Assembly: GCF_054482595.1 (NCBI RefSeq)
Contig: NZ_CM137008.1
Reading direction: 5' to 3' (one strand)
Length of the DNA: 64,000 nt
The first letter of the stretch is position 1; each line of letters begins with the position of its first letter. The notes beneath the pieces are model-generated. The model searched no databases. It was not told the DNA's origin and worked only from the letters and a program-made list of their open reading frames with translations. This document shows, piece after piece, positions 3,153 to 53,446 of the stretch. The position numbers were made by a program, and so were the translations under genes.

Positions 3153-4469
3153 TTACTGCAATTCTTTGGCCGGTTCTTTTACGTACAACAACGCCAACAT
3201 CGACAGCAACGTGCCTCCACCCAGATACCACGCCGGAGCCGTCAAACTATCCAGCAACACGATGGATTGCGTAGCGAAATATTGAGCAAAACCGCCAAAG
3301 ATTGCCACACCAATGCTATAAACCAGCGCAAAACCCAATGCCCGAATCCGTTTCGGCAACAGTTCAGAGATCAACAACATCACTGGCACACCGCCAAGCG
3401 TGGTAAAGCTGACCATCACGAAAACCACCGTCAGCAACATGCCAGGGCTTGGGTAATTCACCAACAGCCAGAATGACGGCCAGCTACAGATCAGCACCAT
3501 CACACGGGAGATTAAAATCAGCTTTTTACGCCCGACCGAATCGCACAACATCCCCACAAGCAGCGCACCCACAAACGTAATAACGCCCGCCAGTAACATC
3601 GCTGCATGAGAATAATGTTGAGGCATCGCCAGATACTTCGCCGCCCAGGTGCCGTAATAAAAGAGGGAGATATAGGTTGCGACCGTGCTACCAATAGCGA
3701 GTAAAACGCCATTAACGATAGTCGCCTTATGTTGCAGGAGCAGAGAAAACGCGCTTTCGCTGGTAGCAGCTTTTTTATTGCGCACAGGCTCAGGTACGTC
3801 ATTTTCCAGACTCAAACGCAACCAACAGCCGACAGGCGCTAATAACACGCCAATAAAAAACGGCACACGCCAGCCCCATTCAGCCATGACGGTTTCTGAA
3901 CCGGTCGCAAAGGGCAGCCATGCACTTAAACCTAAAGCGACAACACCTCCAAAAGTTGTTGCCAGGCCTTGAGTCGCCAGTGACCAACTGCTGTAAAAAC
4001 CGCGACGATTTGCCGGAGCTGACTCCACCAGTAGCGACATTGAAGCCCCAACTTCACCGCCTGCTGCAACACCCTGAATCAAACGAGCAAGTACCAGAGT
4101 TGCCGTTCCCCAATAGCCCGCCGTCGCATACGTCGGCGCAATGCCAATCATCAACGTGCCGAGGCTCATCAGGGCAATAGTGAACACCATCGCGGGTTTG
4201 CGTCCGAAACGATCGGCCCAGGCCCCGACGATAATTCCACCAAGCGGGCGCATAAAAAAACTCACGCCAAACGTTGCAAATGCCAGTAACAGCGCGACAT
4301 TGTGATCAGCGCTGGGTGGGAAGAAAAGTGTACTGATATAGACCACAAAAAAGTTGTAAACGCCAAAATCAAACAATTCGAGCGCATTGCCAAACGCCGA
4401 GGCAAAAATCACCCGCCTGCCGCTGGGCTTTTTCTTCACACTCACGGTTTCATTTACGATCGCCGTCAT
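3153..4469 (-). CDS. MFS transporter, metabolite:H+ symporter (MHS) family-like; substrate unknown
   Basis: 438 aa, many predicted TM segments, MFS signature region GxxxDRFGRK ([12 protein letters not shown]). Lies in a segment I do not recall between fabR and sthA in K-12. Confidence 0.8.
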
Positions 4470-48713: not shown

Positions 48714-50045
48714 ATGTCTGAAATGACCCCACGCGAAATCGTCAGCGAACTGGATAAGCACATCATCGGCCAGGACAACGCCAAGCGTTCTGTGGCGATT
48801 GCTCTGCGTAACCGCTGGCGTCGCATGCAGCTCAACGAAGAGCTGCGCCATGAAGTGACCCCGAAAAATATCCTGATGATCGGCCCGACCGGTGTCGGTA
48901 AAACTGAAATCGCCCGTCGTCTGGCTAAGTTGGCGAATGCGCCGTTCATCAAAGTTGAAGCGACCAAATTCACCGAAGTGGGCTACGTCGGTAAGGAAGT
49001 GGATTCTATTATTCGCGATCTGACCGATGCCGCCGTGAAAATGGTACGCGTCCAGGCTATCGAGAAAAACCGTTATCGCGCTGAAGAACTGGCAGAAGAA
49101 CGTATTCTCGACGTGCTGATCCCACCTGCTAAAAACAACTGGGGACAGACCGAACAGCAGCAGGAACCGTCCGCTGCTCGTCAGGCATTCCGCAAAAAAC
49201 TGCGTGAAGGCCAGCTTGATGACAAAGAAATCGAGATCGATCTTGCCGCAGCACCGATGGGCGTTGAAATTATGGCTCCTCCAGGTATGGAAGAGATGAC
49301 CAGCCAGCTGCAGTCCATGTTCCAGAACCTGGGCGGCCAGAAGCAAAAAGCGCGTAAGCTGAAAATCAAAGACGCCATGAAGCTGCTGATTGAAGAAGAA
49401 GCGGCGAAACTGGTGAACCCGGAAGAGCTGAAGCAAGACGCTATCGACGCTGTTGAGCAGCACGGGATCGTGTTTATCGACGAAATCGACAAAATCTGTA
49501 AGCGCGGCGAGTCTTCCGGTCCGGATGTTTCTCGTGAAGGCGTTCAGCGTGACCTGCTGCCGCTGGTAGAAGGTTGCACCGTTTCCACCAAACACGGGAT
49601 GGTCAAAACTGACCACATTCTGTTTATCGCTTCTGGCGCGTTCCAGATTGCGAAACCGTCTGACCTGATCCCGGAACTGCAAGGTCGACTGCCAATCCGC
49701 GTTGAACTGCAGGCACTGACCACCAGCGACTTTGAGCGTATTCTGACCGAGCCGAATGCCTCTATCACCGTGCAGTACAAAGCACTGATGGCGACTGAAG
49801 GCGTAAATATCGAGTTTACCGACTCCGGTATTAAACGCATCGCGGAAGCGGCATGGCAGGTGAACGAATCTACCGAAAACATCGGTGCTCGTCGTTTACA
49901 CACTGTTCTGGAGCGTTTAATGGAAGAGATTTCCTACGACGCCAGCGATTTAAGCGGTCAAAATATCACTATTGACGCAGATTATGTGAGCAAACATCTG
50001 GATGCGTTGGTGGCAGATGAAGATCTGAGCCGTTTTATCCTATAA
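48714..50045 (+). CDS. hslU: ATP-dependent protease ATPase subunit HslU (ClpY)
   Basis: 443 aa [40 protein letters not shown]...; Walker A GPTGVGKT. Confidence 0.96.
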
Positions 50046-50076: not shown

Positions 50077-50100
50077 GGGGCTGAAAGGCCCCATTTTTAT
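50077..50100 (+). terminator. hslVU intrinsic terminator
   Basis: Hairpin ggggctgaaaggcccc followed by atttttatt. Confidence 0.65.
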
Positions 50101-50111
50101 TGGCGCGTATT

Positions 50112-51038
50112 ATGACTGAACAACAAATTAGCCGAACTCAGGCGTGGCTGGAAAGTTTACGACCTAAAACCCTCCCCCTCGCCTTTGCTGCAATTATCGT
50201 CGGGACGGCGCTGGCATGGTGGCAAGGTCATTTTGATCCGCTGGTCGCCCTGCTGGCACTGATTACCGCCGGGCTATTACAGATCCTTTCTAACCTCGCC
50301 AATGATTACGGCGATGCAGTAAAAGGCAGCGATAAACCTGACCGCATTGGGCCGCTACGCGGCATGCAAAAAGGGGTCATTACCCAGCAAGAGATGAAAC
50401 GGGCGCTCATTATTACCGTCGTGCTCATCTGTCTCTCTGGGCTGGCACTGGTTGCAGTGGCATGCCATACGCTGGCTGATTTTGTCGGTTTCCTGATTCT
50501 TGGCGGGTTGTCGATTATTGCCGCTATCACCTACACCGTGGGCAATCGTCCTTATGGTTATATCGGTCTGGGTGATATTTCCGTACTGGTTTTCTTTGGC
50601 TGGTTAAGCGTCATGGGGAGCTGGTATTTACAGGCTCATACATTGATTCCGGCACTGATCCTTCCGGCGACCGCATGCGGCCTGCTGGCAACGGCAGTAC
50701 TGAACATTAATAACCTGCGTGATATCAATAGCGACCGCGAAAACGGCAAAAACACGCTGGTGGTGCGCTTAGGTGAAGTGAACGCGCGTCGTTATCATGC
50801 CTGCCTGCTGATGGGCTCTCTGGTATGTCTGGCGCTGTTTAATCTCTTTTCGCTGCATAGCCTGTGGGGCTGGCTGTTCCTGCTGGCGGCACCGTTGCTG
50901 GTGAAGCAAGCCCGTTATGTGATGCGGGAAATGGACCCGGTGGCGATGCGACCGATGCTGGAACGCACTGTCAAGGGAGCGTTACTGACTAACCTGCTGT
51001 TTGTTGTAGGGATATTCCTAAGCCAGTGGGCAGCATAA
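50112..51038 (+). CDS. menA: 1,4-dihydroxy-2-naphthoate octaprenyltransferase MenA
   Basis: Conserved start MTEQQISRTQAWLESLRPKTLPLAFAAIIVGTALAWWQGHF...; UbiA-family prenyltransferase motif NDYGDAVKGSD. Confidence 0.93.
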   Translation: MTEQQISRTQAWLESLRPKTLPLAFAAIIVGTALAWWQGHFDPLVALLALITAGLLQILSNLANDYGDAVKGSDKPDRIGPLRGMQKGVITQQEMKRALIITVVLICLSGLALVAVACHTLADFVGFLILGGLSIIAAITYTVGNRPYGYIGLGDISVLVFFGWLSVMGSWYLQAHTLIPALILPATACGLLATAVLNINNLRDINSDRENGKNTLVVRLGEVNARRYHACLLMGSLVCLALFNLFSLHSLWGWLFLLAAPLLVKQARYVMREMDPVAMRPMLERTVKGALLTNLLFVVGIFLSQWAA

Positions 51039-51130
51039 CTGACAAATATCAATTAACAATTGATGATTTTGCCAACAGACCACATAGCGCGATATACTGA
51101 AAATTCTCGCAGCAACTGAATGTTAAGCCT

Positions 51131-51616
51131 ATGAAATACGATACTTCCGAGCTTTGTGACATCTATCAAGAAGATGTTAACGTCGTGGAACCGCTGTTCT
51201 CCAACTTTGGCGGACGGGCGTCGTTTGGCGGACAAATAATCACGGTAAAATGTTTCGAGGACAACGGGTTGCTGTACGATCTGCTCGAACAGAATGGCCG
51301 TGGTCGTGTTCTTGTCGTCGATGGCGGTGGTTCTGTTCGTCGCGCACTGGTCGATGCTGAACTGGCGCGTCTGGCAGTACAAAATGAATGGGAAGGTCTG
51401 GTCATTTACGGCGCGGTGCGTCAGGTAGATGACCTGGAAGAGTTGGATATCGGCATCCAGGCGATGGCGGCAATTCCGGTTGGTGCCGCTGGCGAAGGCA
51501 TTGGCGAAAGCGATGTCCGCGTCAATTTTGGCGGTGTTACCTTCTTCTCCGGCGACCATCTTTATGCCGACAATACCGGGATTATTCTTTCAGAAGATCC
51601 GCTGGATATTGAATAA
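51131..51616 (+). CDS. rraA: Regulator of RNase E activity RraA (MenG)
   Basis: 161 aa [46 protein letters not shown]... Confidence 0.95.
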
Positions 51617-51632
51617 GTATCTGCCATGCGTT

Positions 51633-51660
51633 AAAAGGGGAATTAAATTCCCCTTTTTTA
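51633..51660 (+). terminator. rraA intrinsic terminator
   Basis: Hairpin aaaaggggaattaaattcccctttttta. Confidence 0.65.
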
Positions 51661-51663
51661 TAC

Positions 51664-52350
51664 ATGGACGCATTCATGCAGAATATTATTCTTTTATTTA
51701 TATATTTATTACTTATAGCCGTTAACCATTTCCGCTACAAATTTCTTTTATCTGGCAACGCGGGTGAAATGATTTTATATTTTGCTAACGTATTTTTTAA
51801 CCCACTTGCCTTATCATTTATTATCGCCACAATCATCTGTATAACGATAAAAAAAAGAAGCAGCCGCAGCTTTATTCGCGGCACTTGTTGGTTAATGGGA
51901 TTATTTCTTATCTATAGCAGCTATACGGTGTGGGAACGACACAGCATATGGGATTATACTTTCCCGGAGCCAGGTATCACCGTCACGGTTCCGAGCAAAC
52001 AGTGGGTTGCCAATATAGTAAAACAAGGACCAACCCTGGTGACCCGGGATGCCCATGCTATTTTAGCTATTGTTGCCTTCTCACAAAATGAACTCGGTGT
52101 GCATTCAATCGAGGAACTTACCGCGATTCAAAACGGAACTGCAGAAATGCATGTTTGTGATGTTCAGGGATTTGCCTGCGCTTATCAGGAAGGAGTGCAA
52201 ACAATGAGTGATGGCAAAGTAAGACATGCTATTTTCATGACTCTACTGGATAACACTAATTTGATACAACTGGTCGCAGCTATCGACCCAGATTATTTGG
52301 ACGAATATCAAGAAGAAGTAATGAAAATGATGCTTTCTGCTCGTCAATGA
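51664..52350 (+). CDS. Hypothetical membrane-anchored protein, paralog A (start may be internal Met at 51676)
   Basis: 228 aa ORF, AT-rich, 2-3 predicted N-terminal TM helices then ~150 aa domain; about 30% identical to the adjacent downstream ORF with shared motifs (SFxRGxCW, ISVTVP, HxC...F(A/T)CxYQ, MLSA). Confidence 0.6.
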   Translation: MDAFMQNIILLFIYLLLIAVNHFRYKFLLSGNAGEMILYFANVFFNPLALSFIIATIICITIKKRSSRSFIRGTCWLMGLFLIYSSYTVWERHSIWDYTFPEPGITVTVPSKQWVANIVKQGPTLVTRDAHAILAIVAFSQNELGVHSIEELTAIQNGTAEMHVCDVQGFACAYQEGVQTMSDGKVRHAIFMTLLDNTNLIQLVAAIDPDYLDEYQEEVMKMMLSARQ

Positions 52351-52382
52351 TCTGATGTGCATGTTAATAATAATGGATTGAT

Positions 52383-53099
52383 ATGAGATACGTTATCTTA
52401 TTAATACTATGGATAATAACTGTTTTTCTTAGTCATCTTCAGCACAGTAACTTGCTTACTGGAGATCCTGGGATGGTTGGCGAGTATATCGGTTCAGTAC
52501 TTCTTGGGCCGTTATTACTTCCCGTGCTTGTGTCAGGTATTCTGTGCACATTCACTAAAAAAACGCGTAACTTCGCCAGTTTTACTCGCGGGTGCTGTTG
52601 GGTATTGGGAGTCCTGCTTTTATCCAACGTCGGCAATACGTTTCGTCTGTTCACCCCGTGGCACTATACGTTTGAGAAGGCAGCTATTTCCGTGACTGTC
52701 CCAAACCGACACTGGAATACGGTTTCTATTAGTACTGATAAAACCATTGATATAAGAAGTGAAGATAATAGCGTCTTTATTTCTGCTTTCCGCCTGCCCG
52801 CAGGACGTAGCGCCGATGACTCGCTGGAAGAGTTAAAGAAGATGCAGCGAGACAATCTCAAGGATCAATACAATGAAGAAACCTTCCAGTTTCATGATTG
52901 TAATGCCAAACATTTCACCTGTAAGTATCAGGATGTGTTGATAAATTTTGATGGTCAGCAGAAAAGAACCATCAGTGTTTATCTTGAAGACACCCCCAGG
53001 GCTGTGGGGATCATTGCATTAATGGAGCCAGATACGGCAGATAAATATCGCCAACAGGCGATGGAGATTATGTTGTCTGCTAAAAATACAGTGAAGTAA
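52383..53099 (+). CDS. Hypothetical membrane-anchored protein, paralog B
   Basis: 238 aa ORF MRYVILLILWIITVFLSHLQ...; same architecture and conserved motifs as paralog A. Confidence 0.6.
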   Translation: MRYVILLILWIITVFLSHLQHSNLLTGDPGMVGEYIGSVLLGPLLLPVLVSGILCTFTKKTRNFASFTRGCCWVLGVLLLSNVGNTFRLFTPWHYTFEKAAISVTVPNRHWNTVSISTDKTIDIRSEDNSVFISAFRLPAGRSADDSLEELKKMQRDNLKDQYNEETFQFHDCNAKHFTCKYQDVLINFDGQQKRTISVYLEDTPRAVGIIALMEPDTADKYRQQAMEIMLSAKNTVK

Positions 53100-53137
53100 A
53101 AAATAAGGCGCCTTGCGGCGCCTCTGCGTGGAAGAGA

Positions 53138-53446
<309 letters not shown>

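Follow-up and report, generated by a model that had tools for sequence, protein, structure and literature searches.

An accessory gene pair directly behind the rraA terminator of Escherichia coli and its possible expression by read-through and start-site masking

The stretch of DNA analysed here (contig NZ_CM137008.1 of NCBI RefSeq assembly GCF_054482595.1; 64,000 nucleotides, hereafter the window, whose positions are used throughout) is Escherichia coli chromosome and shows 100% identity to strain XH990 across the region discussed. It carries rraA (51131..51616, + strand, 161 aa), recognized from the open reading frame (ORF) list, from a Pfam RraA-like match (E = 1.9e-39) and from the PGAP annotation of the identical sequence. 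Behind rraA, on the same strand, lie two paralogous genes, A (51676..52350) and B (52383..53099), which share 30% identity (E = 6e-35) in an alignment that begins at residue 1. The rraA stop codon, TAA at 51614-51616, is followed by an intrinsic terminator, and the start of A follows almost at once. On balance, and with little better than even confidence, we favour the reading that A and B lack a dedicated promoter and form the distal part of the rraA transcription unit, reached by terminator read-through and translated from a masked A start.

Terminator, start codon and a predicted masking helix at the rraA-A junction

The rraA terminator occupies 51633..51659 on the + strand and consists of an A-tract (51633-51636), a stem-loop (51637-51653; GGGGAAT-TAA-ATTCCCC, with a 3-nt loop and a G/C-rich base) and a U-tract (51654-51659), the T6 lying directly 3' of the stem. 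Between this T6 and an ATG at 51664 stands only ATAC, and the arrangement given in a preliminary description of the locus, a terminator with an ATG starting 4 nt beyond it (51664) and another ATG in the same frame at 51676, can be read directly from the sequence. Folding against shuffled sequence gave -13.2 kcal/mol for the hairpin with its A:U extension (z = -4.1; 0 of 200 shuffles equalled it), and a pattern scan also classes the 51633-51659 hairpin as terminator-like. The core stem-loop has a free energy of -8.4 kcal/mol, with a d'Aubenton-Carafa-type score of 13.7 and a T-tract score of 4.56; for comparison, the rraA terminator of K-12-type genomes reaches -11.0 kcal/mol and a d'Aubenton-Carafa-type score of 33. 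Judged by its sequence, the terminator is bona fide yet modest, and would be compatible with partial read-through. Read on the - strand, the palindrome likewise forms a hairpin, with UUUU after it. An Rfam search returned sub-threshold, terminator-driven matches only (SraG, sraA). The possibility that the hairpin is a repeated mobile palindrome was rejected, as each genome holds a single copy.

The functional start of A, as alignment and annotation indicate, is 51676 and not 51664. PGAP starts A at 51676 in several genomes, and it is from this Met that A aligns with B (MQNIILLF versus MRYVILLI). The core of its Shine-Dalgarno (SD) sequence, GGA at 51666..51668 on the + strand, lies 7 nt before this ATG. 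The upstream in-frame ATG (51664..51666, + strand) is probably not a start: it overlaps the SD (ATGGA), has no SD 5' of it and is unused by PGAP. In the orthologous locus L008 (compared loci are cited by their L numbers), whose protein is 54% identical to A by alignment and whose core genes show 82-89% DNA identity to E. coli, AAG replaces the 51664 ATG and no other in-frame start lies upstream; the L008 ATG has AAGGA 5' of it at 7-nt spacing. Since A[AT]GGA is invariant at the SD position of A in all relatives (AAGGA in L008, L028 and L029), the 51664 ATG is merely part of the SD. A start at 51664 was rejected on the strength of the L008 AAG, the SD overlap and PGAP usage. From the U-tract to the start codon there are 16 nt, which contain only the SD and are far too short for a promoter. 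The earlier statement that A has no room for its own promoter was right in substance, although the gap to be considered runs to 51676.

The family to which A and B belong sits in the rraA-zapB interval of Escherichia, Atlantibacter, Huaxiibacter, Lelliottia, Enterobacter and Kluyvera, to give its named members. A scan of GTDB genomes returned Escherichia loci only, and the wider relatives came from a protein profile search. The tight junction recurs in at least six lineages, namely E. coli/E. albertii, L008, L015, L028/L035/L037, L029 and L031/L039, where the named cluster members are Huaxiibacter, Lelliottia and Enterobacter. These share one layout, in which TAA, 14-17 nt, the hairpin with its U-tract, A[AT]GGA, 5-7 nt and ATG follow one another within an intergenic region of 55-66 nt, and their downstream proteins are approximately 20-54% identical to A. 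The hairpin and U-tract are retained with an altered stem sequence in L008, L015, L016, L023, L028, L029 and L031. The stems found among relatives include GGGGAAU, GGGGGA, GGGGAAA, GGGGGC and GAGAGGAGAAU, in each case with a complementary arm and a U-tract at the equivalent position, so that it is the structure and not the sequence that is conserved. In the variants that lack A (L006, L013, L014 and L023), the same hairpin is the sole terminator after rraA.

Minimum free energy and partition-function folds predict that 51617-51684 forms one long interrupted helix of -25.7 kcal/mol. The masking strand predicted from the folds and from duplex free energies (51620..51632, + strand) would pair through AUGCGUU (51626-51632) with GACGCAU (51667-51673), covering two SD bases, and through UCUGC (51620-51624) with GCAGA (51678-51682), covering the G of the AUG. 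The E. coli flank duplex has a free energy of -14.1, compared with -7.3 +/- 2.5 for shuffled upstream flanks (P = 0.01). In all intact lineages the first 16-17 nt past the rraA stop are complementary to the SD or AUG of the following gene. Flank pairing was thus also found in L008 (UACAUCCUGUA with UACAAGGAUGUA), L015 (AUACAUCGUAUA with UAUAUGGAUGUAU), L031 (CAUCCUGUA with UACAUGGAUG) and L028, where ACGCAU directly after the stop pairs with AUGCGU, which holds the start codon, and UUGUAA pairs with UUACAA. Across the intact lineages, shuffling of the upstream flank gave P = 0.003-0.08 for the full fold and P = 0.005-0.2 for the duplex, and the predicted pairing probability of the SD or the AUG is at least 0.85 in all of them. 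In L016, where A is a remnant, the complementarity is absent (P ~0.5-0.67). Furthermore, 82% of the helix cells in the non-E. coli alignment pair, compared with 24-57% in slid registers. Taken as predictions, these results are suggestive of a real masking helix. The masking strand begins 1-4 nt after the rraA stop in every intact lineage, so that, going by general footprint sizes, a ribosome terminating on rraA should open it.

The gene pair, its protein family and the variable segment

Compared with E. albertii, dN/dS is approximately 0.22 for A and 0.10 for B; compared with L008, it is approximately 0.23 for A and not computable for B owing to saturated dS. The first 30 codons of B show a dN of 0.0145 and a dS of 0.379 against E. 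albertii. By these rates, A and B are real genes under purifying selection. Codons 1-90 of A (51676-51945) are nearly identical to positions 4001-4270 of E. albertii L009 (dS 0.0), and the remainder shows a dS of 0.45; read from this pattern, A is a recombination mosaic within the gene between E. coli and E. albertii.

In all RefSeq genomes inspected, PGAP lets B begin at 52473 (208 aa). Upstream of this position, 30 codons (52383-52472; MRYVILLILWIITVFLSHLQHSNLLTGDPG), which form transmembrane (TM) helix 1, are conserved and align with the N-terminus of A, and the orthologs begin at the ATG equivalent to 52383 behind AAGGA or GGGA at the equivalent place. Given this conservation and the shared ATG, the true start of B is almost certainly 52383 (238 aa) and not 52473. 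The weak SD that had been remarked on for the second gene is indeed minimal, consisting of GGA alone (52375-52377), 5 nt before the ATG at 52383. The gap between A and B is 32 nt, and within it the scan lists neither a promoter-like nor a terminator-like site.

A profile search of 1.84 billion representative proteins identified 34 relatives, which form a family of approximately 230 aa, none of them named or assigned to a family. Neither A nor B had a match above threshold in Pfam, NCBIfam, PADLOC or PDB sequences. Both consist of three N-terminal TM helices and a PsbP-like domain; the AlphaFold2 model of A (pLDDT 76.6) shows the three TM helices and a C-terminal alpha/beta domain, and structural superposition of the model on family members points to a PsbP/Mog1/DUF1795-like fold. 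A PxxxW motif and a Cys pair (C161 and C168 in A numbering) are conserved in the family. The positively charged TM2-TM3 loop (KKRSSRSFIR) and the Cys pair together suggest that the C-terminal domain is periplasmic. The PsbP/Mog1/DUF1795-like proteins compared were cyanobacterial PsbP (2xb3), LpqN, DcrB, the type VI secretion system immunity proteins TplEi and Tsi3, and the Eag chaperone SciW. Unlike these families, A and B have no sequence-family membership and carry three N-terminal TM anchors and a conserved Cys pair. A role in the envelope, in immunity or in relation to phages would be in keeping with their rapid evolution and with their presence in some genomes and absence from others. A distant clade of the family (P0032-P0043 of the set P0013-P0043; MRF...CIPK..RN) comes from more GC-rich organisms, and in its single available context (L027) the 101 nt upstream are, on reading, not rraA-like.

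The pair lies in a variable segment that extends from the rraA stop to the zapB stop (51617..53137, unstranded), for which L002 provides an empty site. At least 80% of this segment is present in 657 of 5426 complete E. coli genomes (~12%), some part of it is found in 679-681, and it is absent from approximately 88%. The carriers include O157:H7 EDL933 and O7:K1 CE10. K-12-type genomes have instead an 84-bp rraA-zapB spacer with a different terminator, GGCACC-GCAA-GGTGCC followed by T6. By eye, this K-12-type terminator (AAGGCACC-GCAA-GGTGCC-TTTTTT-CTGCGT, L002 860-895) resembles the zapB-side hairpin of the window at 53100-53130 (AAGGCGCC-TTGC-GGCGCC-T-CTGCGT), with compensatory stem changes, an inverted loop and the T-tract on the opposite side. 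This suggests that the two spacer types may be related through deletion or insertion of the A-B segment.

Several variants of the interval were also observed. The B-only variants L006, L013 and L014 (E. coli; E. albertii type strain) retain the rraA terminator and approximately 25 nt of the A 5' end (ATGCAAAATATT...), after which comes approximately 150 bp of AT-rich DNA unrelated to A (L006 1246-1458; L013 4790-5000; L014 4340-4548). These variants carry a conserved TATAAT just 11 nt before the B ATG, which is too close for a transcript to contain the SD. In E. coli UID2309220041 (L003 1744-2653), an IS26 together with an integrase-bearing segment replaces the rraA-proximal DNA and A. In L008 (7761-8072), B and zapB are separated by an IS200-type Y1 transposase gene and by REP-like repeats. 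The rraA-zapB interval is a hotspot for mobile DNA.

Promoters, proposed read-through and alternative explanations

The best sigma70-like site on the + strand of 50990-51900 is TTGCCA-18-TATACT at 51069..51098, which lies in the menA-rraA spacer and has 10/12 hexamer matches and a position weight matrix (PWM) score of 12.4. According to the part of PMC11288022 that cites Zhao et al. (2006), PrraA is located in the menA-rraA spacer and is sigma-S dependent. We infer that the 51069-51098 site is this mapped PrraA, and it would presumably be the source of the transcripts that reach A and B.

Three ways of transcribing the pair had been put forward in the preliminary description, and read-through from rraA is the best supported of them. 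It is favoured because the tight junction is kept in at least six lineages despite the low identity of the downstream proteins, because the junction comparison revealed no promoter-like site with a usable start point that is positionally conserved across lineages, and because the hairpin is of moderate strength; from these observations we infer read-through itself. Transcripts would begin at PrraA or arrive from menA, and most would end at 51657-51660. A fraction would read through the terminator and carry A and B, the terminator acting as an intra-operon attenuator that sets a low ratio of A/B to RraA. On the read-through RNA, the 16 nt past the rraA stop would pair with the SD/AUG region of A, placing the terminator hairpin at the tip of a longer masking helix. 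A ribosome finishing rraA would then melt the masking strand, and translation of A would be coupled to that of rraA. Expression of A and B should be low and should track PrraA (stationary phase, sigma-S).

Several observations weigh against this reading. The perfect U-tract (T6), together with the A-tract 5' of the stem, makes efficient termination possible. Family genes that are not tight to rraA, namely those of Atlantibacter L019, Kluyvera L023, L016 (with its A remnant) and the one-gene Escherichia variants, have 180-390 nt of upstream DNA. The Atlantibacter gene lies behind a divergently oriented lipoprotein gene and necessarily has its own promoter; in L019, L023 and the one-gene E. coli variants, the family gene evidently works with a long upstream region. 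As for the flank helix, position-by-position covariation in the non-E. coli alignment revealed compensatory double changes at just 2 pairs, the E. coli register differs from that of the other lineages (the L028 type being distinct as well), and the lineages share ancestry. Finally, A and B were not seen in the examined parts of an O157:H7 proteome data set, of which the files were partial.

The alternative that survives best, though unlikely in our estimate, is a dedicated E. coli promoter that overlaps the terminator, with its -35 element CTGCCA at 51621-51626, its -10 element TAAATT at 51644-51649 inside the hairpin loop, and a start in or just after the T-tract. The resulting transcript would evade both the terminator and the masking helix; its leader of approximately 15-20 nt would keep the SD and lack the masking strand, and it would be freely translated. 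This site (CTGCCA-17-TAAATT, 51621-51649) scores 8.8, the highest of the sites whose -10 ends within 51560-51672, and both hexamers are conserved within E. coli and E. albertii; the next site at the junction is TTGAAT-17-TAAAAG with a score of 8.0. The overlapping promoter offered in the preliminary description has this candidate in E. coli, but on a single strand of the window scores of at least 8 arise at about 1.5 per kb, a stricter scan does not list the site, and its predicted start falls within a run of T. Outside Escherichia it is not conserved: the -35 is not kept in L008, L015, L028, L029 and L031, nor the -10 in L015, L028, L029 and L031, whereas the junction is conserved. A recurrent weak motif, TGGATA-N16-18-TA(A/T)AAT-like with TAAAAT or TGTAAT as its -10, was rejected as a promoter, because its start point would lie within the 5' arm of the stem.

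It is less probable still that the hairpin causes no appreciable termination in vivo and serves as a processing or structural element (e.g., an RNase III or RNase E site, or an mRNA stabiliser) within a fully co-transcribed rraA-A-B operon. The single long interrupted helix predicted for 51617-51684, the weak core stem and the conserved junction would all agree with such an element. Yet the G/C-rich stem base, the 3' U-tract (at least 6 Us, or interrupted) and the 5' A-tract are all present and conserved, and the hairpin is the only terminator after rraA in the loci without A.

We consider it equally improbable that the pair is effectively silent, for instance as an AT-rich accessory segment bound by H-NS, with fortuitous promoters inside A serving B only and the tight junction representing inherited synteny. 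GC content drops to 31-35% at 51600-51900, promoter-like sites lie inside A at 51752-51781 (score 9.7) and 51797-51824 (score 10.0), and both the patchy distribution of the segment among E. coli genomes and the proteome result mentioned above are in keeping with silence. Purifying selection on both genes, including the first codons of A and the first 30 codons of B, speaks against it, as does the conservation of the A SD and start context across genera, and internal promoters cannot yield full-length A. The suggestion that start and promoter both lie inside the annotated 5' end is correct only to the extent that the second ATG, 12 nt in, is the start; a promoter for full-length A cannot lie there, since the codons from 51676 onward are conserved, align with the B N-terminus and encode TM helix 1. 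The idea that the true start and promoter lie deep inside the ORF, with the terminator-proximal part untranslated, can draw on those same promoter-like sites and has next to no likelihood, and a start far inside was rejected, because TM1-TM3 are encoded by the N-terminal 30-90 codons, which every homolog conserves, the N-terminus aligns residue for residue with B from Met1, and dN is much below dS against L008.

Beyond read-through onto a masked start, a more speculative proposal, to which we give rather low credence, is that the junction is an undescribed dedicated expression device, in which a helix with the terminator at its tip juxtaposes the rraA stop and the masked start of a fast-evolving envelope-protein gene. 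If so, A would be made only by polymerases that escape termination, on mRNAs whose rraA is under translation, and termination-reinitiation across the stem might be the means. Through such a device, production of a polymorphic PsbP-like membrane protein of the periplasm, perhaps one that serves immunity or envelope defence, would be tied to the stationary-phase RNase E regulator RraA.

Surroundings of the locus and comparison with known systems

Upstream of rraA lie hslU (48714-50045) and menA (50100-51038), and beyond the pair lie zapB (53138-53383, - strand) and glpF (from 53809). A zapB-terminating hairpin of 8 pairs occupies 53105..53124 on the - strand and is followed by TTATTTTTT. Its free energy is -16.4 kcal/mol, with z = -4.6 on the - strand and z = -1.4 on the + strand, and its d score is 19.7 on the - strand compared with -34.3 on the + strand. 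As there is no U-tract on the + strand, transcripts of A and B have no evident intrinsic terminator here and would run antisense into zapB. Antisense promoter-like sites were also observed on the minus strand inside A, at 51953-51980 (GTGATA-16-TATAAT, 10/12 matches) and 51772-51800 (TTAAAA-17-TAAAAT). On the minus strand, the palindrome of the rraA terminator, with its hairpin and UUUU, could protect rraA against transcription from these antisense sites.

Should the preferred reading of read-through onto a masked start hold, the start of A would be fixed at 51676, confirming PGAP, and that of B would move from the PGAP position 52473 to 52383. The rraA-zapB spacer would represent a conserved site of a small uncharacterised membrane-protein family in Enterobacteriaceae, and its junction a compact natural case of a terminator nested in a start-masking helix. 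This would bear on operon and terminator annotation, where a hairpin of this kind is usually taken as the boundary between two transcription units.

Intrinsic terminators serve as attenuators inside other operons too: T1 separates rpsU from dnaG in the rpsU-dnaG-rpoD operon, and an attenuator separates rplL from rpoB. As in both of these, a same-strand gene stands directly behind a hairpin and U-tract at the rraA-A junction, no promoter lies between them and the adjacency is conserved. In rpsU-dnaG and rplL-rpoB, distal expression is set by partial read-through, which at rraA-A would be the corresponding step. Unlike the distal genes of those operons, A and B are accessory and fast-evolving, and the rraA terminator is predicted to cap a longer helix in which the start of the next gene is masked. 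The palindromic stem between an A-tract and a T-tract, which can form on both strands, is also reminiscent of bidirectional terminators between convergent genes, such as that of the K-12-type rraA/zapB spacer; unlike that one, the window hairpin precedes co-oriented genes, and the second hairpin at 53105-53124 serves zapB.

Translational coupling in which upstream translation opens a long-range masking of the ribosome-binding site is known from rpmI to rplT in the infC-rpmI-rplT operon and from coat to replicase in MS2. The SD/AUG region of A is likewise predicted to pair with sequence that is traversed or covered by the ribosome of the upstream cistron. Unlike in these systems, the masking strand at rraA-A lies just past the stop and outside the ORF, the terminator hairpin is nested in the helix, and the case is a computational one with weak covariation. 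The proposed mechanism overturns no established principle: internal operon terminators and start-masking coupling are both established kinds of control, and the rraA-A locus, as predicted, combines the two compactly before an uncharacterised accessory family.

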